Positions 1 to 64,000 of a stretch of 64,000 nucleotides of DNA are shown one piece after another. A model generated the notes under the pieces. The model ran no database searches. It saw nothing but the letters and a program-made list of their open reading frames with translations, and was not told the DNA's origin. The first letter of the stretch is position 1; each line of letters opens with the position of its first letter. Origin of the DNA: an uncultured Phycisphaerales bacterium (GTDB taxonomy: Bacteria > Planctomycetota > Phycisphaerae > WQYP01); assembly GCA_903845195.1 (NCBI GenBank), contig CAIMWO010000033.1, positions 2,347 to 66,346 on the forward strand, read 5' to 3'. Made by a program: the position numbers and the translations under genes.

Positions 1-1346
<1,346 letters not shown>

Positions 1347-1530
1347 TCTTCTTCCTTCTAACCTTCACGTAGGCCGGGTCGAGGCAAACTCGCAAGGTTA
1401 TAGCGGTTGGCGAGGAAACCGTAAAGCACGGCGGAGGAAAAGTGGAAAAATGGAGCGTTAGAGATGAAGGGATTGGTGGCCAAGGAATGAAAAGGTGGTG
1501 ATGGGCTGAGCATCGTGGAACCACCCAAGT

Positions 1531-16255: not shown

Positions 16256-16594
16256 ACCCGCACCGTTCCATTGACCCCACCCGATCCGCCGCTAAGATGC
16301 CATTCGTGTAGACGCTGGAAATTCTTGCCGAATGTGGAGATTGATGCCTGTCCCGATGGGCACGCAGAGATTTCTGCAGCGGGGGACCCGATGCGGCCTC
16401 CAAACGGACCGCTCTGGGGCGAATCTGCCATACCGGCAGTAGGCGTATCAGCGCGCCGAGCCCGTCAGCTTACCTCGCAGGCTACACCGGAGTGAAGACG
16501 CAGAACGAAATCCGCGCCCAGAAGGCTGCCGGGAAGTTCCCGAACTGCGGCCCGATTTTTCTGTGTGCCGTGCGCGCTGCGTTGTCAGAATCGT

Positions 16595-18577
16595 ATGCTC
16601 GTATCCCATCAAGAACGCCCGCGCGAACTCCGCTGGTACCACGCCGGTCCCATGCTCTATGGCGACTGGGGCACCAGTCGTTTCTACGTCCTCGGGCTGG
16701 CCTTCTATTTTGCGCTTTACGCCTCCTTCTGGTACATCCTTGGCGTGGGTCTCCTCGTGGCCGCCGTCGGCTGGGCCTACACGGTGGTTTGCCGCGTCTA
16801 TCCCGATGGCGGGGGAGTCTACTCCGCCGCCCGCCAGCTCAGCCCCGTCCTCTCGGTCATCGGCGCTCTACTCCTCTTTGCCGACTATGCCGTCACCGCC
16901 GCCCTCTCCGCATTCGAAGGCATCCATTACTTCGGCATCGAATCCAATCATTGGGTGCAGGTCGGCGCCATCGGCAGCATTCTTTTCCTCGGCTTGATCA
17001 ACTACATCGGCCCCAAGCGTGCCGGCGCGTTCGCACTCGTCGTGGCCCTGGCCACCCTCGTCTGCACGCTGATTCTGGTTGCCTTTTCCATACCCCATCT
17101 CCATGCCGGCTGGTCGCATATCGCCTCTCCCCAAGGCGCCATGACGCATCGCTGGTCCACCCTCGTCAACGTCGTGCTCGCACTCTCCGGCGTCGAGGCC
17201 ATCGCCAACATGACCGGCATCATGGTGCAGCCGGTCAGCAGCACTAGCAAGAAATCCATCTGGCCGGTCCTGGCCGAGGTGGTCATATTCAACATCCTGC
17301 TGGGCATCGCCATGCTCGCCCTGCCCGCCGCGCTGCAGACCGCTTCCTCGGACCCCGCAGAATTCACCAAGCCCGCCTACGTCTATGACCGCCAGCGCGC
17401 CGAATTTCAGGACAACAACCCGGGCTACAAGTCCGACCCCGTGCTCAAAGCCCGCTTCGACGCCCTGCCCGAAAAATCCCGTAACGAAGAGCGCATGCAG
17501 AAAGTCGTGCTTCGCGTCATGGGCGAACAGTTCGTTCACCCCTGGTTCGGCGCCATTAGCGGCGTCGTCTTCGGACTTCTCCTGATTTCCGCGGTTAATA
17601 CCGTCATCGGCGGCATGGTCTCCGTCAGCTACGTCATGTCCCGCGATACCGAGTTGCCGCGTTTCTTCGGCAAGCTCAATCTCTTCGGCGTGCCGTGGCT
17701 CGGACTGATCCCGGCGATCATCGTGCCCTGCCTGCTGCTGCTGCTCTTTACCGATCTCGATGCACTGGCGGATCTCTATGCGATCGGCGTCGTCGGCGCG
17801 ATCGCCATCAATCTCTCGTGTTGCACCATCAATCGCAGACTCCCCGTCAAGAAATGGGAACGCACCGCCATCGGTTTCATCGCCGCGGTCATGATCGCCA
17901 TCGAACTCACGCTCGCCGTGCAGAAGTGGCACGCCCTGGTATTCGTCTCGATCATTCTTGTGATCGGCCTGGGGATGCGGCTCTTCACCAAGTGGTACTT
18001 GCCCGCCCGCGCCAGAATGGGTCTGCCTCCCACGCCCGAGACCCTGACGACCGGCCGTTACCGCGGCGCCGAAACTCACATCGAGCGTCCTGCGCCGGCC
18101 GTGGCCGCCGAAGGCAAGATCTCCGTCAGCATGTTTGGTACTCCCGCGGAACAGTTGGATATGTCCAAACCGCACGTCCTCGTCGCGGCGCGCGGTTCCA
18201 AACCTCTCCTCGATTTTGCCGCAACCTACGCCAAGCAAATCAACGGCATCCTGTTTGTCATCTTCGTTCGCCAGGTCAACGTCGCCTTCGAGATGGGCGC
18301 CCGTGCCCCCACCCTCGATGAAGATCCCGCTGCCCGCAATGTCTTTGAAATGGCCGCCCAGGCCTGCAGGGATGCCAGTGTCCCGCTCATCCCCATCTAC
18401 GCTGTCAGCGGCGATGTGGCTTATTCCATCCTCGACTTCGCCGCCACTTACGACGTCCGCGCCCTGCTCATGGGCGTCAGCCGCAAGGGCACATTCCTCC
18501 GCGCCCTGCAGGGCGACGTCCTTACCGCCGTCGCCGATCAGCTCCCCGCCGACATCCCGCTGCTGATTCACGCCTGA
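16595..18577 (+). CDS. APC-superfamily amino-acid permease fused to a C-terminal universal stress protein (UspA) domain
   Basis: About 12 hydrophobic helices from YGDWGTSRFYVLGLAFYF. C-terminal ~150 aa HVLVAARGSKPLLDFAATYAKQINGILFVIFV...ALLMGVSRKGTFLRALQGDVLTAVADQLPADIPLLIH is Usp-like. Confidence 0.65.
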   Translation: MLVSHQERPRELRWYHAGPMLYGDWGTSRFYVLGLAFYFALYASFWYILGVGLLVAAVGWAYTVVCRVYPDGGGVYSAARQLSPVLSVIGALLLFADYAVTAALSAFEGIHYFGIESNHWVQVGAIGSILFLGLINYIGPKRAGAFALVVALATLVCTLILVAFSIPHLHAGWSHIASPQGAMTHRWSTLVNVVLALSGVEAIANMTGIMVQPVSSTSKKSIWPVLAEVVIFNILLGIAMLALPAALQTASSDPAEFTKPAYVYDRQRAEFQDNNPGYKSDPVLKARFDALPEKSRNEERMQKVVLRVMGEQFVHPWFGAISGVVFGLLLISAVNTVIGGMVSVSYVMSRDTELPRFFGKLNLFGVPWLGLIPAIIVPCLLLLLFTDLDALADLYAIGVVGAIAINLSCCTINRRLPVKKWERTAIGFIAAVMIAIELTLAVQKWHALVFVSIILVIGLGMRLFTKWYLPARARMGLPPTPETLTTGRYRGAETHIERPAPAVAAEGKISVSMFGTPAEQLDMSKPHVLVAARGSKPLLDFAATYAKQINGILFVIFVRQVNVAFEMGARAPTLDEDPAARNVFEMAAQACRDASVPLIPIYAVSGDVAYSILDFAATYDVRALLMGVSRKGTFLRALQGDVLTAVADQLPADIPLLIHA

Positions 18578-54595: not shown

Positions 54596-55441
54596 TCAAT
54601 CTGCCTGGGCGCGGCAGAACGCATCAACTGTGCCGAGCAAGACAAACCCCGCCCGCTCATAGAGTCCAATGGCCGCCGCATTGCCCTCATTCGTAAGCAG
54701 CGTGACATAACGATGCCGCGACCGTGCCGCCAGCTCAAACGCCCGCAGCAACAGCGCACCGCCGATGCCCTGCCGGCGATACGCCGGGTGAACATCAAGA
54801 CTGTAGATGTATCCAAGATCGCCGCGGGTATAGAGCGTGACGCAACCGGCCGCCACGGGAACATCAGTACTGGCGAGCGCCAGAAACCCGTCCATATCTG
54901 TGTCGTCGAGTCGCCGTTCCACCGCGGTGAGAAGCTGCAACCGCTCTGCGGGATCCGTAACGCCCTCGTTCGCGAGAATTGTTTCTGTAAGACTGCCCAA
55001 CAAGGACATGCCCGCGCGAATCGGCACAAACGTGAGATCCGCTCGATCTGGAAGCGGCCTCACCTGCCCGAGTGAATAGCAACGATCCGTCCGCTGCTGA
55101 TAGCCCTCGGATTGCAGCACGGCCTGTAACCCGGTGCAAGCATTCTGCGGGGAAATTTCCCATTTCCGGCACCGGACGTTGTGCTGGTTGAAATACCCGT
55201 CCACCTCCGCGATCGCCGCGGCGGGATCGGCATCGGCCGTAAGGGATATGTCTGTGACACAATTGGCCGAGCGCACCACCGGAAACTCCGGCGCGCAAAT
55301 TGCCAGGCCAAAATCGAACGTCGTTGACTCTCCTAGAATTAAATTCGCCGCCCCATGCGCCCGCACGGTCCGCGCAACCAGTTGCTGCGCCGTCATCGCC
55401 GGCACGGCAGATTTGAACACTGGAAGGTTGAATCGGGACAT
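54596..55441 (-). CDS. GNAT-family N-acetyltransferase (tandem GNAT-like halves)
   Basis: C-terminal half YIYSLDVHPAYRRQGIGGALLLRAFELAA...VTLLTNEGNAAAIGLYERAGF is a canonical acetyl-CoA-binding motif. Confidence 0.6.
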   Translation of the reverse strand: MSRFNLPVFKSAVPAMTAQQLVARTVRAHGAANLILGESTTFDFGLAICAPEFPVVRSANCVTDISLTADADPAAAIAEVDGYFNQHNVRCRKWEISPQNACTGLQAVLQSEGYQQRTDRCYSLGQVRPLPDRADLTFVPIRAGMSLLGSLTETILANEGVTDPAERLQLLTAVERRLDDTDMDGFLALASTDVPVAAGCVTLYTRGDLGYIYSLDVHPAYRRQGIGGALLLRAFELAARSRHRYVTLLTNEGNAAAIGLYERAGFVLLGTVDAFCRAQAD

Positions 55442-55742
55442 CACTCGTCCTTGGTTTCCGTGCCACGCACACCGAACCAATGTTTTTGCATTGAGGCAAG
55501 AAATTCTCGGGTAATCGGATAACCCGATGCAGACCCGATCACCGAATCGATTCCACAGTACGGGCAGAATGCTGTTTGGCCAACCCCAATAGGTTCGTCG
55601 TACCAATTGGTAATTAACGAGGGAGGAAATAGTCGGATGCAACAAAAGCAACCGCAGGTATTGCTGCGCTCAATTTCGTCTCGGTGACGAATGCTATGTT
55701 TGTAGGCGGCAATGTAGTCGGGGTCTGCCATGGGGCTTCCGA

Positions 55743-57206
55743 TTACGCACAGACGCCGGGCTTCTTCTTGCTCCACTCATGCGCCGATTCATACTGCTGC
55801 GCCACCCGCAGCAGCGTCTTCTCGCTGAACGTCGGCCCCAGCAACTGCAACCCGATCGGCAGATTCCTCGAAAACCCGCACGGCAGCGACAGCCCCGGAA
55901 TCCCCGCAATATTGCACGTCACCGTGAACACATCGCACAAATACATCTGCAGCGGATCGTCCCCCTTGCTCCCGAACTCAAACGCCACTGATGGCGACGT
56001 CGGACAAGCAATCACGTCGCACTTCTGAAACGCATCATCAAAATCCTTCTTGATCAGCGCCCGAACCTTCAACGCTTGCAGGTAAAACTTGTCGGCATAA
56101 CCCGCCGAAAGCGCGTACGTCCCCAGCATGATGCGGCGCTTCACTTCCGCCCCAAATCCCTCGCCCCGGCTCGCGGCATACAAATCGTACAGATCCTGCG
56201 GCGTATGCGTGCGATGTCCATAATGCACCCCGTCATATCGCGCCAGATTCGATGACGCCTCCGCTGGCGCAATGATGTAATACGCCGCAATGCCATACTT
56301 CGTGTGCGGCAGCGAAACGTCCACCAGCGTCGCCCCGTGCGATTTGTACCAGTCGATCGCCCCCTGCACCGCCGCCTTGACCTCCGGCTCCATCCCCTCC
56401 ACATCAAAATATTCCCGCGGAATCCCGATCCGCAGCCCCGTCATCGGCGTCTTCAACTCCGCCAGATAATCCGGAATGGCATCAGGCCAGCTGGTGGAAT
56501 CCTTCTCATCATGTCCCGCGATCACCTGCAAAAACAGCGCTGCATCTTCCACCGTCTGCGTCATCGGCCCGATCTGATCCAGCGAACTGGCAAACGCCAC
56601 CAGCCCGTAGCGCGATACCAGTCCATACGTCGGCTTAAGCCCCACGATCCCGCACAGCGAGGCCGGCTGACGGATCGATCCTCCCGTGTCCGAGCCCAGC
56701 CCGCCGAACGCCAGTCGCGCCGCCGTCGCCGCCGCCGCCCCGCCCGACGATCCGCCCGGCACGCACTTGGTATTCCAGGGATTCTTGCTCGGCCCGAATG
56801 CCGAATTCTCTGTCGACGAACCCATCGCAAATTCGTCCAAGTTCGTCTTGCCCACGATCACCGCGCCCGCCGCCTGTAGCTTCTCCACCACCGTCGCGTT
56901 ATACGGCGCATGAAAATTTTCCAGCATCTTGCTGGAGCACGTCGTCGCGCCCCAGTTCGTGCACATGTTGTCCTTGATGTAGATCGGCACGCCCGCCAGC
57001 AGCCCCGGCTTCTCGCCGCGCTTGATCGCCGCGTCGATCTTCTCCGCCTGCTCGATCGCCCGCTGCGGGAAGATCGAGTTGTACGCATGAAGCTGCGGAT
57101 TCAGATGGTCGATCGCCGTCAGAACTTCCTGCGTCGCCTGCCGGCTGGTGATCTCTCCGGCAGCAATTTTGTCGCGCAGTTCACGGGCGGTAAGGGACGA
57201 AAGCAT
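55743..57206 (-). CDS. gatA: Asp-tRNA(Asn)/Glu-tRNA(Gln) amidotransferase subunit A (amidase signature)
   Basis: GLLAGVPIYIKDNMCT, GGSSGGAAAATAARLAFGGLGSDTGGSIRQPA amidase signature. Confidence 0.9.
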   Translation of the reverse strand: MLSSLTARELRDKIAAGEITSRQATQEVLTAIDHLNPQLHAYNSIFPQRAIEQAEKIDAAIKRGEKPGLLAGVPIYIKDNMCTNWGATTCSSKMLENFHAPYNATVVEKLQAAGAVIVGKTNLDEFAMGSSTENSAFGPSKNPWNTKCVPGGSSGGAAAATAARLAFGGLGSDTGGSIRQPASLCGIVGLKPTYGLVSRYGLVAFASSLDQIGPMTQTVEDAALFLQVIAGHDEKDSTSWPDAIPDYLAELKTPMTGLRIGIPREYFDVEGMEPEVKAAVQGAIDWYKSHGATLVDVSLPHTKYGIAAYYIIAPAEASSNLARYDGVHYGHRTHTPQDLYDLYAASRGEGFGAEVKRRIMLGTYALSAGYADKFYLQALKVRALIKKDFDDAFQKCDVIACPTSPSVAFEFGSKGDDPLQMYLCDVFTVTCNIAGIPGLSLPCGFSRNLPIGLQLLGPTFSEKTLLRVAQQYESAHEWSKKKPGVCA

Positions 57207-57243
57207 GCAGCGTTCCTTGAGCGGTTAGTGGCCTATTTCATCG

Positions 57244-57846
57244 TTACTGGTTGGGCTTCCACGTGATCGAGCCGAGAATGCCGAGCGCCAGTTTGCGTTC
57301 GTCATCATTCTTTGCCACGGCCATCGCATGCAGCTGATCGCCATCGGCCCGAAGCACGATCAATTCGCAGAAGGGTTGTTTCCCCTTCGTATACCCGTTG
57401 ATCTCCCGCGTCGGCAGACCGTTTAGCAGGTAAGTCTTGGTCTCTTTCACGGTGTAGTCCGCCGGGCCCGCCTCGACCAGACTCTTGGCCTCCGCCGAAG
57501 TCGTGATGACCACAAACGGCGTATCGGTCGGTGCCGGCCGTCCGTTATACAAAGAATATTGATCGATCTTTTCGGTGGACTTCTTCATTCGCGTAACCGT
57601 CGTCGGCGTCGTGAATTCCCACGTGCCGCTGACCACCGGCGCCTTCGCCCCCGACAACGTCGGCCCACCCGCTTTCACCGGTTCCGCCTCGGCCTTGCTC
57701 GAAGCGTTCACCGCAATCACATCCTCGCCGAACTCCGGCCGCACTATCCGCTGCCGTTGCTGAATCGGACTCATCGATTGGCAACCCGCCAGCAACAGCA
57801 ACCCCGCTCCCCCTGCCATCATCCATCCACGTATTTTCATAATCAT
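57244..57846 (-). CDS. lipoprotein, hypothetical
   Basis: AGAGG SD. MIMKIRGWMMAGGAGLLLLAGC lipobox. Confidence 0.45.
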   Translation of the reverse strand: MIMKIRGWMMAGGAGLLLLAGCQSMSPIQQRQRIVRPEFGEDVIAVNASSKAEAEPVKAGGPTLSGAKAPVVSGTWEFTTPTTVTRMKKSTEKIDQYSLYNGRPAPTDTPFVVITTSAEAKSLVEAGPADYTVKETKTYLLNGLPTREINGYTKGKQPFCELIVLRADGDQLHAMAVAKNDDERKLALGILGSITWKPNQ

Positions 57847-57915
57847 TACCTCTGAAAGAGATCCTGATGTTCTTCCCACATCGCAGCGGCACAACGGCCG
57901 CGCGACCATTTTTTC

Positions 57916-58236
57916 TTATCCACCGCCCATGCCGGTATCCAAAACCTTCGGCACCGCAAAATAAGGCCCATCCTTCGCCGGTGCGTTCGCCAATATCTGC
58001 TCCGTCGTCAGCCCGGGATGCACCACATCCTCCCGCAGCACATTCTTCAGCGGCAGCGGATGCGCCATCGGCTCAACGCCTTCAACATTCACTTCCTTCA
58101 ACTGCGCCACGTACCCCAGCACACCCGTAAGCTGGGTGGCATAGCGGGCAATGTCGGCATCCGTGAGCTTCAATCGCGCCAGCTTGGCGACCTTTTTCAC
58201 TTCTGCTGCATCGAGCTTTACGGCCGGTTCAGCCAT
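57916..58236 (-). CDS. gatC: Asp-tRNA(Asn)/Glu-tRNA(Gln) amidotransferase subunit C
   Basis: 106 aa; VKKVAKLARLKLTDADIARYATQLTGVLGYVAQLKEVNVEGVEPMAHPL is the GatC signature. Confidence 0.8.
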   Translation of the reverse strand: MAEPAVKLDAAEVKKVAKLARLKLTDADIARYATQLTGVLGYVAQLKEVNVEGVEPMAHPLPLKNVLREDVVHPGLTTEQILANAPAKDGPYFAVPKVLDTGMGGG

Positions 58237-58256
58237 GAGCCCATCCTTTCGCGCAT

Positions 58257-58284
58257 AAAAAACGAGGCTCGTAAGCCTCGTTTG
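58257..58284 (-). terminator. rho-independent terminator downstream of rpmB (minus strand)
   Basis: Minus strand reads acgaggct-tacg-agcctcgt followed by tttttt. 8-bp stem. Confidence 0.5.
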
Positions 58285-58377
58285 TACGTCTAACTCATGA
58301 TTTGGTCAACGATTTCCAAGGACCGTATCGCCGATGCCCCTCGGCCGTCCGGCCGCCAAAGGCTTCGACCACCCGTC

Positions 58378-58650
58378 TTAGGCTTCTACCTTCGCCGGTG
58401 CCTTGTACGTCTGCGAACGCTTCAACCGCTTGGTCACCAGGCCGCTGCGAATCGCCTTGGCCGACGCCCACACCCGGGCCGGCTTGCCATCGATCACAAC
58501 GCGAACCTTCTGCAGGTTCGGCTTGAACTTGCGGGCGCTGCGACCGGTGATCTTGATACCTACGCCGCCCAGGTACTTGGCCTTACCACGGTAGGTGCAC
58601 TGGCGACCGATCTTCGTGCGACGGCCGGTATAAACACATTCGTGCGGCAT
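58378..58650 (-). CDS. rpmB: 50S ribosomal protein L28
   Basis: MPHECVYTGRRTKIGRQCTYRGKAKYLGGVGIKITGRSARKFKPNLQKVRV fits the L28 pattern (C.VTGK...G...S......R.F.PNLQ). Confidence 0.8.
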   Translation of the reverse strand: MPHECVYTGRRTKIGRQCTYRGKAKYLGGVGIKITGRSARKFKPNLQKVRVVIDGKPARVWASAKAIRSGLVTKRLKRSQTYKAPAKVEA

Positions 58651-58702
58651 GGATAAACTCCTTGGTCAATATCGAGCCAAGTAATCTAGCAGAAAGGCGG
58701 GT

Positions 58703-61576
58703 TTAATGCAACGCGGCGGGATTTGCGGCGGGATTTGCATTTTTCTCGATGCCTTCCGTCCCGGTGAGGTTTGCCAAGAGGGCTACATAAAGCTGCTGGC
58801 CGCTTACCCAGTACATGTGCTTGCCTGCAATCCAGGGGCCGGCAAAGTCGACGCCCAACCGCGGCAGCTGAAAGCCGCGATCCAGCACCCAGAGCCCATA
58901 CTTGGGCTTTGCCGCATCGGTTTCACGGCGAAATCGCAAAAGTGATTGCTGGGTTGTCACCCATACGGTATGCGTAGACTCGACCGTCAGCCGCCCCGCA
59001 TAGAACGATGTGGCGTCTAGCGGTATCAATTGCGACGGCTTGTCCGGGTAGAGCACTTCGGCTTCGCGCTGGCGCAGAGACCAGGTCCCATCGTCGGCAT
59101 CCTGCCAGGTCGAGCCGCCCTGAAGTGAGTGGGGGAGCACACGCCATTGGCCGTCCTCCCATCGGCGGACGGATGCCAGGTCCGCACTTCTCACCTGTGC
59201 ATCCCATTCCGGCGATTTGGACCCCCGTTGCCGGGCTTCTTCCAGCCGAATCGGATAGACCTCCTTCCAGTGTGCGGCCGCTTCCGGGGTGAGCGTCCAT
59301 CCACAAGAAAGTTGCGGCAAGGCGCTACAGTCCGGCCATGTCGAGGCCCAACTGCCCTCCTGCGAATGAACCGGATTTGCGGTTATCGTCGCGCCATCAA
59401 ATTTCATCCACTGCAGCGTCGCATATTGTTTATCAAAGCCGAGTACGGCGCCCATCTTCGCATCGACGCCAACAATGTGAGCGAGCAGCGGATCGAATTC
59501 ACCACTGCTCTTCTCCTGGCGGTAGATCGCCCAGTCGGTCCCGCGGAACACCCCGACGGCCGCGAAATCACCGCACATGCCGTTGCGTTCGGCCACATAC
59601 ACCTTTTGTTTAATGTAGAGTGCATCACCCAGGCGGACCAGGCAGCATGCCTGCCAATCTGCGCCTGCGGTAAATGCCGCGCCGTCCGGCATCACTTCCA
59701 TGAGTCGCTCATGGTAGGTTTCCACAAGAGCTTTGAGGGACCTGGCCCTCTCTGTCGTTCCACGATCATGGAACAGAACGCCGTTGATGCCTTCATCTCC
59801 GCCGATTGTAGGGACGATGGCCGTGCCTCTGCTCAGCGGCCAGATGCTGGGATTGAAACCCGTGGCGAGCGGTTCGCCGAGCTCCGTGACCTTGCCCGCC
59901 TCAGCGCGGCACAACTGGGTGGTTACCCGTGCGGTGGGTCCGAGTCGCGCGATCACTTCGCTGCGTTTCACCCCGTGCCGGATGAACCACAGACGGCCGC
60001 CCGGACCACGAACGGTGGGATAGTTTTCCAGCAAATTGTCCTGCACGGGCAATCTTTCGGCGATGCTTTCGCCGCGCAGCAGCGGCATGCCGGGTTCTTC
60101 GGCGAGGTTCAGCCAGACTATCGATTGTTCTTTCTCGTATTCCTTTCCAACCTTGAACGCCAGGCAAACCCACGATTTCCTCGTGGCGACGATGTGCAAC
60201 TCATGACCAGCCAGCGTCCCAAGGGAAGCAATGGGCGTAATCTGATTCCGGCTTCGATCGATCGTGTAAAGCTTCGCTTCATCGTGCGCGTAGAGTCGGC
60301 CGTTGTCGCCGACGCAGTCGATCACGAACCCCTTACTGGGTAAATCGACCGGCGTAATCGCCTTTTCCTCAATGATGAGCATCTTGGTCTGTGGTTCCCC
60401 GGCCCGCCACGCCTGCACGTACTGCCGTCCATCGGGATCGACAAACAGCAGCCGTGCCGCAGGCCAGTCTGCGAGTTTGGTTACCTGCACATCGGTGCCG
60501 CGGGCAACGATCGCGTCGATCGCCTGGTGAAGGCGAGCGGTGCTTTCTTCGCCGGTCGTTTTCCGCAGGGCTTCGTTGAGCAGCCCCAGGCGGGATTCGG
60601 GCAAGTCCGAGAGGATCTTCGTGGCACGCTGACGCGTGGCGAATTCATCGTTTTCCAGATCCGCAATTGCCGCGTGAATCTCCGCCGCCGACCGATCGGG
60701 CCCGACGGCCAGCGACAGCATCAGTATCTTGTGGGGTATGAAAGTATCCCTGATGTTGTCCGGCGTCTTGTGATCCACGAGTAAATAGCCCCGGCCGTTG
60801 TGATGGATCACGCCGTCGGCAAATTCCTCCTTGAGGCGGGTGACGATTCTGGCGCTGTCGTCGGCAATGCGGATGACAAACGACCCTGTCGTGTGGCAGT
60901 TGGATGTGAATCTCCGCGTGAGCCAGAGGGAATCGCCGATGCGGAAGAGCTGGTTCGCCCAGTACGATCCGGCGCTGGACAGGTCCTGATTTTCATCGGC
61001 ATTGGCGAGGGCAGGTAGGGATATCTCATGGCTCTGTTCGCCCGTGAGGGTGAAAATCCGATCTGTGCCTACGACCCAGACAGTTTGTTTTTGATCGACT
61101 AGTAACGACCGGCCGACCCACGACGCGGCATCCGGCACATTGGGAAAGCTCCGTGCCTCATAGTAATAGCCGGAGAATTCTCGCCGATTAAGTTGCCCGC
61201 CGGCGATCGTCCAGAGCACGCATCTCTTCTGATCTTCGGACGGGTCAAGGTAGTACGCGACGGATTTTTCGTTCACCGCCACGAGCGGGACGTAATCGTT
61301 GAAGCCAGCCTTGCCGGTATGCGGGGAACGCAGATGTGCATGGGGAAAAGGGAATTCCCTCGCCGCGTATCGTTCGCGGCAGCCGTCGTGCAGCGGTGTG
61401 ATCTCCACATCAATCGCCACGCCGCCGTTCGGTAGCCGCGCCAGTTCCGTTCCCCGGTCGTACATGTAGACGATGCGCGCGGAATCGATTCGCGGCAGTT
61501 CCGGATCGGCCGCACGGCTTTGAAGGGGACCACACGACAGCAGCAAACATGTCCAGAGGATGCGGCGCAAGATCAT
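58703..61576 (-). CDS. 957-aa Sec-secreted protein of unknown function
   Basis: Signal MILRRILWTCLLLSCGPLQSRAA. Uniform coding composition, no recognisable motif. Confidence 0.5.
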   Translation of the reverse strand: MILRRILWTCLLLSCGPLQSRAADPELPRIDSARIVYMYDRGTELARLPNGGVAIDVEITPLHDGCRERYAAREFPFPHAHLRSPHTGKAGFNDYVPLVAVNEKSVAYYLDPSEDQKRCVLWTIAGGQLNRREFSGYYYEARSFPNVPDAASWVGRSLLVDQKQTVWVVGTDRIFTLTGEQSHEISLPALANADENQDLSSAGSYWANQLFRIGDSLWLTRRFTSNCHTTGSFVIRIADDSARIVTRLKEEFADGVIHHNGRGYLLVDHKTPDNIRDTFIPHKILMLSLAVGPDRSAAEIHAAIADLENDEFATRQRATKILSDLPESRLGLLNEALRKTTGEESTARLHQAIDAIVARGTDVQVTKLADWPAARLLFVDPDGRQYVQAWRAGEPQTKMLIIEEKAITPVDLPSKGFVIDCVGDNGRLYAHDEAKLYTIDRSRNQITPIASLGTLAGHELHIVATRKSWVCLAFKVGKEYEKEQSIVWLNLAEEPGMPLLRGESIAERLPVQDNLLENYPTVRGPGGRLWFIRHGVKRSEVIARLGPTARVTTQLCRAEAGKVTELGEPLATGFNPSIWPLSRGTAIVPTIGGDEGINGVLFHDRGTTERARSLKALVETYHERLMEVMPDGAAFTAGADWQACCLVRLGDALYIKQKVYVAERNGMCGDFAAVGVFRGTDWAIYRQEKSSGEFDPLLAHIVGVDAKMGAVLGFDKQYATLQWMKFDGATITANPVHSQEGSWASTWPDCSALPQLSCGWTLTPEAAAHWKEVYPIRLEEARQRGSKSPEWDAQVRSADLASVRRWEDGQWRVLPHSLQGGSTWQDADDGTWSLRQREAEVLYPDKPSQLIPLDATSFYAGRLTVESTHTVWVTTQQSLLRFRRETDAAKPKYGLWVLDRGFQLPRLGVDFAGPWIAGKHMYWVSGQQLYVALLANLTGTEGIEKNANPAANPAALH

Positions 61577-61786
61577 GAAGTACCTCGCTGTTGGTAATCA
61601 AGTACTCCTTGGAATACCGCACAAGTCGGGAGGGATCAAGACAAATCGCCCGGGAGTTTCCTTGCAGGGGAGCGGGCGTGGGACCGGCTGGCGACCGTTG
61701 AATGTGTATAGAAACTCATCAATACACTGTTGACATCCTTAATCAGCCGTCTACCATTGCCTTGCTTACGAATCTAGGGTGTCTCG

Positions 61787-62542
61787 ATGTTACGAATGCT
61801 CATTGCCGTGCCGGTCTTCAACGAAGAGAAGTACGTCACGCGCGTGCTTTCTGAAATCCGCAAATACGGCCATGACGTCCTCGTCATCGACGACGGCTCC
61901 ACCGATGCCACCCCGTCCCTCCTCCGCAAAGTCCGCGGCATCCGCATCCTCACCCACCCCGAAAACCGCGGTTACGGCCAGTCGCTCATCGATGCCTTCA
62001 CCTATGCCGCCGATCGTGGCTATGATTGGGTCCTCACCATGGATTGCGATGAACAGCACGAACCCGCCCGCATCCCCGCCTTCTACGCCGCAGCGCAGCG
62101 CGACGATGCCGACGTCATCTCCGGCTCGCGCTACATGCCCGGCGACAACGGCGATGCCGACCAGCCTCCCCCCGATCGCCGCAACATCAACATGGTCATC
62201 ACCGAATTGCTCAACTCCACGCTCAATCTTTCGCTCACCGATTCCTTCTGCGGCTTCAAGGCCCATCGCGTCGCAGCCATGCAGAAACTTCGCCTGACCA
62301 TCCCCGGCTACGCCTTCCCCATGCAGTTCTGGGTCCAGGCCGTTGCCCAACGCCTGAACATCCGCGAAATCCCCGTCAAACTGATCTACAAAGATGCCAC
62401 CCGTCACTTCGGCGGCATGCTCGACGACCCCACCGCCCGGCTGCAGCATTACCTTGAGGTCCTCGCCACCGAACTCCAGGCCGTGCAAACCGAATCCCCC
62501 GTCCTCGCCGATACATCATGCGCGCTATGCTGTGACCCGTGA
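61787..62542 (+). CDS. family-2 glycosyltransferase, polyprenyl-phosphate sugar synthase type (DPM1/ArnC-like)
   Basis: IAVPVFNEEKYV, LVIDDGSTDAT, DxD in TMDCDEQHEP, GSRYM...FCGFKAH. Confidence 0.8.
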   Translation: MLRMLIAVPVFNEEKYVTRVLSEIRKYGHDVLVIDDGSTDATPSLLRKVRGIRILTHPENRGYGQSLIDAFTYAADRGYDWVLTMDCDEQHEPARIPAFYAAAQRDDADVISGSRYMPGDNGDADQPPPDRRNINMVITELLNSTLNLSLTDSFCGFKAHRVAAMQKLRLTIPGYAFPMQFWVQAVAQRLNIREIPVKLIYKDATRHFGGMLDDPTARLQHYLEVLATELQAVQTESPVLADTSCALCCDP

Positions 62543-62565
62543 CAGCGCCGCAGTATTATGCAACC

Positions 62566-64000
62566 ATGACCTCCGTCTCTCCCAACCACGACGCCGTTCG
62601 CCCCGATCCCGCACAGATTGTGGTCCCGCGAAAACATGGGCAAGTGCTCTTCACGCCCGCTCCAAACCTGTTGACCGATGCCCGTCGTCCCACGCTGGCC
62701 GGAAAATGGTCCGAGTTGCAGCAACTCGCCCGGCAGGATTTCCTTCACGCCGTCCAAACCCACGCCCAGCGCATCGGCGCCCCGCCTCCGCCGCAAACCC
62801 TTCTCGAAAAACGCTGGATTCTCACCGGCCATCAGCTTGAGTTCTATCACGCCGGAGTCTGGGCCAAAGTCGTCGCCGTCGATGAACTGGCCCGCCGCTT
62901 CGGTGGCGATGCGTCGGCCGCAGCCTTCGACGTGCTCGTCGATCATGATGTCGTCGATCGCCTCGGCTTCGACGTGCCCGTTCAACAAGGTGAAACCTGG
63001 CAGCGCTATCCCGTGCTCTGGGCCTCCGCCTCGCACGTTCCCGCCGATGGCTTGCATAGCCCAAACCTCAAGCAATTCGAAGCTTGGGACGCGGAATTGG
63101 CCAAGCATCCCCAGGCCCACGTCGATGCCCTGGCGCACATCCTGACGGAACTGAAACCCACCGCCGAATTGCGGCAATTCACCCCCTGGATGTCCCGCGC
63201 CCGCTGGAAACTCGAACAGGCGATGGGCATCAACGTCCACCACGTGCCGACCAGCCTGTTGTGTAGCGGAGACGCCTGGGCCACCTTCGTCCGCGCCTGG
63301 ATCGAACACGCCGCCGCTTGGACCGCCGTATACAACAAACACCTCCACGCCTACCGCCGCCGCGCCGGCATCAAGAACCCCCAGCACCCCATGCCCGACC
63401 TGCAAAAAACCGTCGACACGCTGGAACTTCCCTTCTGGATCTACCGCCCCGGCCAACCGCGCCAGCGCCTCTTCCTGCGCACTGGTGCCAATCCCGCCCT
63501 ACTTCATGGTGAAACCGCGCTCCCCCTCAATTCAGAATTCAAAATTCAGAATTCAGAATTCGTCATCCGCCCCCGCGCACTCACCCTCACCATGTTCCTC
63601 CGCCTCTTCGTCGGCGACCTCTTCATCCACGGCATCGGCGGGGCGCTCTATGACCAGATCACCGACGGCATCCTTCACGAACTCTTCGGCGTCATCCCCT
63701 CCTACGCCTGCGTCTCCGCCGCCTGGCTCCTTCCCCTCGGCCAGCCCTTCGAAGCCGCCGATGACCTCGCCGCCCTCCGCTGGCGCCGCCATCACGCACT
63801 GCACAATCCGCAACTGACCATCGATCCCTTCACCGCGCTCAAGACGGATGTCGCCGAACTCATCACCCAGCGGCGTGATCTAATCAAAGCAATCGCCGAT
63901 TCACTTGCCCATCACCGCCACGACGGCCGCCCCGCCCGCGCCGCATCCTTCCGCCAACTTCACGCCCTCAACGCCGCCTTGCACGAAAAAGCCCCGCGCA
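62566..64000 (+). CDS. hypothetical protein (>478 aa, runs off the window end) carrying an in-frame heptamer-repeat-encoded insert NSEFKIQNSEF
   Basis: ATG 24 nt after the GT2 stop. Open frame with coding-like composition on both sides of the 63529-63562 repeat. No family recognised. Confidence 0.5.
   Translation, partial: MTSVSPNHDAVRPDPAQIVVPRKHGQVLFTPAPNLLTDARRPTLAGKWSELQQLARQDFLHAVQTHAQRIGAPPPPQTLLEKRWILTGHQLEFYHAGVWAKVVAVDELARRFGGDASAAAFDVLVDHDVVDRLGFDVPVQQGETWQRYPVLWASASHVPADGLHSPNLKQFEAWDAELAKHPQAHVDALAHILTELKPTAELRQFTPWMSRARWKLEQAMGINVHHVPTSLLCSGDAWATFVRAWIEHAAAWTAVYNKHLHAYRRRAGIKNPQHPMPDLQKTVDTLELPFWIYRPGQPRQRLFLRTGANPALLHGETALPLNSEFKIQNSEFVIRPRALTLTMFLRLFVGDLFIHGIGGALYDQITDGILHELFGVIPSYACVSAAWLLPLGQPFEAADDLAALRWRRHHALHNPQLTIDPFTALKTDVAELITQRRDLIKAIADSLAHHRHDGRPARAASFRQLHALNAALHEKAPR
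63529..63562. repeat. (AATTCAG) heptamer tandem repeat, ~4.8 copies, reverse complement of the 50-83 repeat
   Basis: aattcagaattcaaaattcagaattcagaattcg read directly. Sits inside the last CDS without breaking its frame. Confidence 0.9.

Follow-up and report, generated by a model that had tools for sequence, protein, structure and literature searches.

Translated heptanucleotide repeat arrays retained at orthologous sites in a BshC-like enzyme and the CarB linker of Phycisphaerae

Two tandem arrays of the same seven-base unit lie within protein-coding genes near the two ends of a 64,000-nucleotide (nt) stretch of DNA from an uncultured Phycisphaerales bacterium (assembly GCA_903845195.1, contig CAIMWO010000033.1, positions 2,347 to 66,346; here called the window). 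One array is in carB, which encodes the large subunit of carbamoyl-phosphate synthase, and the other is in a gene for a BshC-like protein; the GC content of the window is 59.7%. The arrays and their host genes are as follows.

50 to 83, perfect (GAATTCT)x4.9 on the plus strand, read on the minus strand: left array (Tandem Repeats Finder, period 7, 100% matches)
1 to 1347, minus strand: 5' part of carB (NCBIfam PRK05294, E value of 6.9e-238)
63529 to 63561, plus strand: right array, (AATTCAG)x4.7 (Tandem Repeats Finder, period 7, 92% matches)
62566 to 64000, plus strand, running past the window edge: BshC-like host gene (Foldseek and homologue search)

The unit of the right array, AATTCAG, is the reverse complement of the left-array unit, GAATTCT. 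An earlier note on this DNA, made from the letters alone, had described (AATTCAG)~4.8 at 63529 to 63562 as the exact reverse complement of the tract at 50 to 83. Tandem Repeats Finder bore out the tract and the reverse complementarity, but the end, copy number, and purity needed correction: the array stops at 63561, with base 63562 starting the next codon (GTC), it comprises 4.7 copies, and it carries a single mismatch, an A for a G at 63542, through which codon AAA (Lys) replaces AGA (Arg). On the minus strand, the left array reads GGAATTC(AGAATTC)4 (34 nt) inside the CarB reading. When the 21-mer (AGAATTC)3 was searched against the whole window with up to 3 mismatches, it matched at the two tracts only (0.00 matches expected from 100 shuffles), and a scan for imperfect runs found no degenerate period-7 run in the window besides these two. 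Two loci with one unit occur 63 kb apart, within 74 kb of the source genome (the window plus the extension provided by the metagenome contig L242, described below).

Both arrays are in frame, in the plus-strand open reading frame (ORF) from 62566 and in minus-strand carB, respectively, as the earlier note had held in placing the repeat inside a long open ORF. The ORF from 62566 reads ALPLNSEFKIQNSEFVIRPRAL across the right array, and the array peptide is L-NSEFKIQNSEF (residues ~330 to 341 of protein P0001, which is 535 amino acids [aa] long). In each host gene, AGAATTC is the sense in which the repeat is read. This shared sense and the shared peptide had been singled out as a point of interest, and both are real; however, they follow from arithmetic. 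(GAATTCT)n carries TGA in all three frames, and (AGAATTC)n has no stop in any frame; three units make 21 nt, so that all three frames are traversed, and the product is always a cyclic permutation of RIQNSEF. Since one strand is always closed and the other always open, the common sense and peptide are forced in both genes and carry no independent weight. The description of the codons as AT rich and atypical for the genome applies to AGA (4% of Arg codons in the window) and TCA (9% of Ser codons) but not to the other five of the seven, with ATT, AAT, GAA, TTC, and CAG all being ordinary codons in the window.

The host protein of the right array has no match in Pfam or NCBIfam. It measures 535 aa in P0001 and 526 aa when counted from the ATG at 62566, and a homologue search returned 550 hits, defining a family of ~520 to 560 aa that is conserved in Phycisphaerae. 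When a predicted model of the protein was compared to known structures with Foldseek, the top match was BshC (4wbd; E value of 1.8e-11, template modeling [TM] score of 0.56). BshC is the cysteine-adding enzyme of bacillithiol synthesis, and the family may function in Phycisphaerae as a thiol or cysteine ligase. In an AlphaFold model built on 45 homologues (mean predicted local distance difference test [pLDDT] score of 93.9), array residues ~330 to 341 form a loop between the strands at 326 to 330 and 342 to 345, with a local pLDDT dip to 78. This loop is variable in the family alignment and lies immediately N-terminal to an invariant IRPRALTLTMF motif. The right array is native and is translated in frame as a short hydrophilic surface loop of the BshC-like enzyme. 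Two further motifs, GHQxEFxH and HGIGGAxYD, are invariant in the family (homologues P0001 to P0120). In P0023, residues 336 to 346 adjoining the array loop (FVIRASSFVIR) resemble a 21-nt tandem duplication that takes in the start of the IRPRAL motif. Directly upstream of the BshC-like gene is one more gene:

61787 to 62542, plus strand: GT2 glycosyltransferase gene (Pfam PF00535)

This neighbor is kept wherever the upstream gene was seen (the window and metagenome contigs L242 and L243).

At the other end of the window, the PRK05294 match stops at model position 412, just ahead of the array. In the alignment, residues 410 to 422 of Escherichia coli CarB are replaced by query residues 35 to 88, a lineage-specific linker of ~54 aa that joins the carboxyphosphate and oligomerization domains, and the array lies inside this linker. 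The carB gene of L081, from a Phycisphaerales metagenome-assembled genome, is 83% identical to that of the window at the DNA level and carries the same 34-nt array, base for base, at the corresponding codons. Together with its immediate flank, the array forms the longest identical run (41 nt) in the 1350-nt alignment of the two carB sequences, in which third-codon-position identity is 0.60 and the four codons just upstream of the array are wholly different (KHES versus QSQQ). In more distant Planctomycetota, the linker is short or the site is occupied by other sequence.

Downstream of the array, L081 CarB has further lineage-specific insertions, e.g., KQLRTSEFRRDVSG and PPTQNRAATVRERPVNP, and the former includes SEFR and could be a remnant of a decayed array. 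The linkers of other Planctomycetota (P0122, P0128, P0133, P0153, P0156, and P0270 to P0299) contain recurring peptides such as TGVQPVS...HGRDAHAT and DKTTQGESLDHEWPI, which look like in-frame translations of another dispersed repeat family. The CarB interdomain linker thus seems to be a site where repeats in general tend to settle.

Comparison of orthologous sites revealed that position is retained while the unit changes. At the carB site, the units seen in DNA are AGAATTC (the window and L081), GGAATGC (L121), and GAAACGC (L244), and the peptides RSQKPEARSQ and KSEVRSQ point to two more, AGAAGCC and AGAAGTC. The carB genes of L121 and L244 are 82 to 88% identical to each other, and yet their units differ. 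At the BshC-like site, the window array reads, unit by unit, AATTCAG AATTCAA AATTCAG AATTCAG AATTC, whereas P0002 (63% identical; locus L120), the closest orthologue, reads AACGCGG AATGCGG AATGCGG AATGCGG AATTT, with the position, loop length, and number of heptamer slots all equal. P0003 has the peptide LNSEFRILNSEF at this site, L243 has a decaying array (AATTCAT CGTTCAG CGTTCAG AATTCAG AGTTCAA), and in other near homologues the loop is equally long but unrelated in sequence; many orthologues have no array. The equal-length loops rule out insertion into an empty site. The earlier note had suggested checking whether orthologues lack the insert; in near orthologues of the right gene, the loop is no shorter than in the window and is present either as an array or as decayed sequence.

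Since near orthologues have different units at one site, the arrays must be old and must have evolved in concert: at both sites they predate the divergence of several Phycisphaerae species, and they have stayed internally uniform while the unit changed between lineages. In-place concerted evolution predicts that the units at the array edges should retain the older state, and they do, as AATTT in L120 and as ..QN at the array ends of P0124 and P0147. The L120 BshC-like gene has two GGAATGC arrays, at 1135 to 1152 and 1517 to 1544, in two different variable loops. At the loop corresponding to 1135 to 1152, the window orthologue has no array (KPTAEL-RQF), and P0049 has TQNSELRTQNS, from whose peptide the unit AGAACTC is inferred. 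On the L121 contig, an intergenic (TGAATGC)x2.6 at 16618 to 16635, between ssb and the gene for ribosomal protein L9, has a unit one base off the GGAATGC that this contig carries in its carB array.

The tracts are also native to the source genome. Over window positions 54951 to 64000 (9050 nt), the metagenome contig L242 from JGI matches with 100% identity, and the 10 kb by which it extends beyond the window contain ordinary genes and no other array. The 90%-identity cluster of the BshC-like protein has five strain-level members (from NCBI, ENA, JGI, and Logan); all have the array loop, its length is equal in 5/5, and one variant (P0244) has Arg rather than Lys at position 335, corresponding to the unmutated array. 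The earlier note had named a native repeat family, a large element with terminal inverted repeats, and a linker or adaptor artifact as possible sources. The presence of the same tract in five strain-level sequences and in L242, and of arrays at orthologous codon positions, upholds the first and refutes the artifact; nor are the copies confined to contig ends, with the tracts being internal to contigs of 24 to 142 kb from several sources. Sampled ORFs in the window interior encode PNPase, GatB, GatA, GatC, L28, lipoamide dehydrogenase, a histidine kinase, and sugar-nucleotide enzymes, and no mobile-element genes were found among them.

The unit itself is widespread. (GAATTCT)3 occurs at no fewer than 119 loci in representative genomes, and, besides many Nostoc, the matches listed come from Bacteroidota, Acidobacteriota, Verrucomicrobiota, Planctomycetota, Clostridia, and candidate phyla. 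In unrelated phyla, (AGAATTC)n is found in frame (..NSEFRIQNS..) in IleRS, ValRS, AlaRS, UvrA, MetH, LpxB, and Lnt (loci L042, L070, L039, L084, L094, L106, and L097), and in most of these genes it lies between Pfam domains. The retrieved Nostoc copies are mostly in short ORFs, and most are therefore probably intergenic. Around these copies, other heptamers abound: in a census of ~0.9 Mb from 121 loci (L001 to L121), most of them selected by pattern and 119 of them from the (GAATTCT)3 scan, we counted 157 exact tandem arrays of other heptamers, compared with 13, 15, 26, and 14 arrays at periods 5, 6, 8, and 9, respectively. A second, independent collection of at least 120 contigs from metagenomes (L122 to L241), chosen by pattern with (GGAATGC)3, yielded 126 arrays at period 7 and 21, 10, 11, and 3 at periods 5, 6, 8, and 9. 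The period-7 excess was seen in many phyla beyond the cyanobacteria, with a usual array length of 27 to 34 nt. One Bacteroidota contig (L001, 5211 to 5554) has five adjacent heptamer arrays (CCTAATT, GAATTCT, ATTCCGT, ATTTCGT, and ATTTCGC) in which neighbors differ stepwise.

Taken together, these observations lead us to propose that each tract is a coding copy of a dispersed heptanucleotide simple-sequence repeat (SSR), of the long-SSR or short tandemly repeated repetitive sequence (STRR)-like class, a reading to which we assign a probability of roughly 0.68. With 4.7 and 4.9 copies by Tandem Repeats Finder, the two tracts have more than the minimum of three head-to-tail 7-nt copies that defines such a repeat. 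Under this proposal, heptamer arrays would arise genome-wide and turn over by slippage-type events, and those surviving within genes would be the ones with the stop-free sense and an in-frame length, in loops or linkers where extra residues are harmless. The uniformity of the arrays would come from replication slippage or unequal exchange inside the array. Only three-unit (21-nt) steps would keep the coding frame, and shrinkage to about two units followed by re-expansion could spread one variant through the array. We saw no evidence for a function of the peptide or of the DNA tract, or for an on/off switch, and the arrays probably serve none.

Several observations weigh against this proposal. 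Slippage predicts length variants, but none was seen among the five strain-level sequences, and tract length is equal between the window and L081 and between the window and L120. Slippage within a single array leaves unexplained why two unlinked genes share a unit and why GGAATGC occurs in L121 carB and twice in the L120 BshC-like gene. The 41-nt identity in carB fits selection on the nucleotide sequence or homogenization equally well. Finally, the preference for seven bases is itself unexplained; the origin of bacterial heptanucleotide repeats and this preference have lacked an explanation since 1990 and 2007.

We also considered whether the arrays could be selected cis-acting elements, for example DNA or mRNA sites for a protein that reads seven bases (of the OB-fold, Csp, or S1 type) or signals that make translation pause where two domains meet. 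Nucleotide conservation above the synonymous background in carB (the 41-nt identity against a third-position identity of 0.60) would be expected of such elements, as would the purity and narrow size range of the arrays (4 to 5 units here, mostly 27 to 34 nt in other contigs), the location of the carB array at a domain junction, and the two rare codons among seven; moreover, regulatory roles have been proposed for other heptamer families (PMC4679880, PMC4692102, PMC2700814). However, close relatives do not conserve the unit, as the GGAATGC of L121 and the GAAACGC of L244 illustrate, the L243 array is decaying, and many orthologues are arrayless. The hairpin formed by AGAATTC arrays (z scores of -3.6 and -3.9) is not formed by GGAATGC arrays at the same sites (z scores of -1.0 and 0.0), and neither site matches an Rfam family. 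We therefore regard a cis-acting role as unlikely. We rejected a hairpin or cruciform and a structured RNA, since the orthologous nonpalindromic arrays do not fold and Rfam has no match at either site, and a tandem cluster of restriction sites (five GAATTC sites) is ruled out by variant units that lack the site.

Slightly less probable, in our estimation, is that the unit spreads or is homogenized between loci, by ectopic gene conversion, template switching, or a dedicated enzyme, such that a lineage has "its" unit at many loci. This would account for the fact that both window arrays share one of ~1,170 distinct primitive heptamer classes (our own count, with rotations and reverse complements pooled), for the two GGAATGC arrays in two loops of the L120 gene, one of them at a site without an array in the window, and for the presence of the same derived unit in L121 carB. 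Among the retrieved loci, 6 of ~163 additional arrays were a nearby second array of the same family, far above chance, and single-unit dispersed families are usual in Geobacter, Xanthomonas, and Beggiatoa (PMC2700814, PMC4692102, PMC4679880). On the other hand, L120 (GC content of 0.67) and L121 (0.60) are probably different organisms, and no pair of loci could be traced to the genome of a single relative: at least two related carB genes are present in ERZ26871208, a metagenome assembly. The older-state edge units point to in-place change rather than reinsertion, and local drift would be expected to give close relatives different derived units, as observed. The tetranucleotide correlation between L121 and L243 was 0.88, and known same-genome pieces gave 0.88 to 0.98, with the ranges overlapping. 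The (GGAATGC)3 metagenome scan had no carB or BshC-like contig among the matches listed, and an additional protein search, which gave short fragments only, found no further GGAATGC carB.

A broader version of this idea, and one that we hold to be no less doubtful, is that heptamer arrays are actively seeded or homogenized across loci by a process common to many phyla, whether template switching or an enzyme working in a seven-base register. If so, each lineage would have a current unit, and arrays would colonize the linkers of essential genes as a mobile microsatellite; the twin arrays of the window and the GGAATGC arrays of its relatives (in carB and twice in the BshC-like gene) would be traces of that process.

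It is very improbable that the arrays are phase-variable contingency tracts, in which gain or loss of one unit shifts the frame and turns the gene off or on. A unit whose length is not a multiple of three in a coding location is the classical slipped-strand layout, but the five strain-level sequences showed no length polymorphism, the carB tract is equally long in two species that share 83% identity in carB, and the arrays are hosted by carB, which is a core biosynthetic gene, and by the gene for a conserved BshC-like enzyme. In relatives, the fragmented carB calls stem from nanopore frameshift errors along the gene and not from the array; frameshifts at the array are ruled out as the cause of short carB calls on long contigs, where such errors are scattered over the gene.

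That the two tracts bound a 63-kb element as its terminal inverted repeats, or are an adaptor or assembly artifact, can be dismissed, for although they are inverted and close to both window ends, the genome runs on normally past both edges (L242 and L081), the interior consists of housekeeping genes, each tract is conserved separately within its own gene in relatives with different neighbors, recombination between the tracts would join halves of carB and the BshC-like gene, and independent Illumina and nanopore assemblies concur.

For annotation, the tracts should be kept as true coding sequence and neither trimmed as artifact nor taken as an element boundary. Beyond this genome, heptamer repeats supply linkers and loops to essential proteins of different phyla, and the same two protein loops in related Phycisphaerae, in which the unit has been replaced several times without a change in position or length, provide a natural series with which the dynamics of heptanucleotide repeats can be compared across species. 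Elsewhere in the window, a cyclic di-AMP (c-di-AMP) riboswitch lies at 16320 to 16499 on the plus strand (Rfam RF00379; 61 bits versus a gathering score of 38), and the ORF directly downstream (16496 to 18574) specifies a fusion of an amino-acid permease with a universal stress protein domain.

The arrays belong to a repeat class that is already known. The STRR sequences of Calothrix and Nostoc have the units CCCCAGT, TTGGTCA, and CAACAGT. Like them, the window arrays are tandem heptanucleotides, probably of a genome-dispersed type, and (GAATTCT)n is abundant in many Nostoc amid other heptamer families. Unlike the cyanobacterial STRR, which occur in heterocystous hosts and are mainly intergenic, they have a Phycisphaerae host, both copies are translated, and their unit is none of STRR1 to STRR3, which places them outside the STRR in the strict sense. 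The window arrays likewise resemble the phase-variable contingency loci of Haemophilus, Neisseria, and other bacteria in being coding tandem repeats with a unit length that is not a multiple of three, but they differ in that no copy-number polymorphism was seen and in that they lie in housekeeping genes and not in surface or restriction-modification genes.

According to Mrazek (2007), as relayed by two later papers (PMC4679880, PMC4692102), heptanucleotide repeats are the most abundant long-SSR class in many bacteria, with polymerase slippage in a seven-base register proposed as the cause. Dispersed families with about four units include the GGGAATC family of Xanthomonas, in which four units are favored (Rehm et al. 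2015, PMC4692102), and the TAACTGA repeats of Beggiatoaceae, Cyanobacteria, and Bacteroidetes, for which "no mechanism is evident" (MacGregor 2015, PMC4679880). The present arrays resemble the GGGNATC repeats of Xanthomonas and Nostoc and the TAACTGA repeats in their seven-base unit, in the preference for about four units, in their probable dispersal, and in the occurrence of one unit in distant phyla with no known mechanism of transfer. In contrast to those families, for which G-quadruplex formation or translational regulation has been proposed, AGAATTC is without G-tracts and lies deep inside genes.

The closest precedent is provided by the dispersed elements of Geobacter metallireducens, which consist of four tandem heptanucleotides (GGACCGG) and occur in 49 copies (Aklujkar et al. 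2009, PMC2700814). As in the window and its relatives, these elements comprise ~4 to 5 tandem seven-base units and lie within genes, sometimes twice per gene (compare L120), as well as between genes. One unit occurs at many loci of the G. metallireducens genome, and here too a unit is shared, at the two loci seen. The unit and the phylum differ, and GGACCGG has been annotated as a set of putative regulatory elements. Orthologous conservation and unit turnover are not described for the G. metallireducens elements in that paper; the arrays described here would add coding copies, conserved between orthologues, to the known class.

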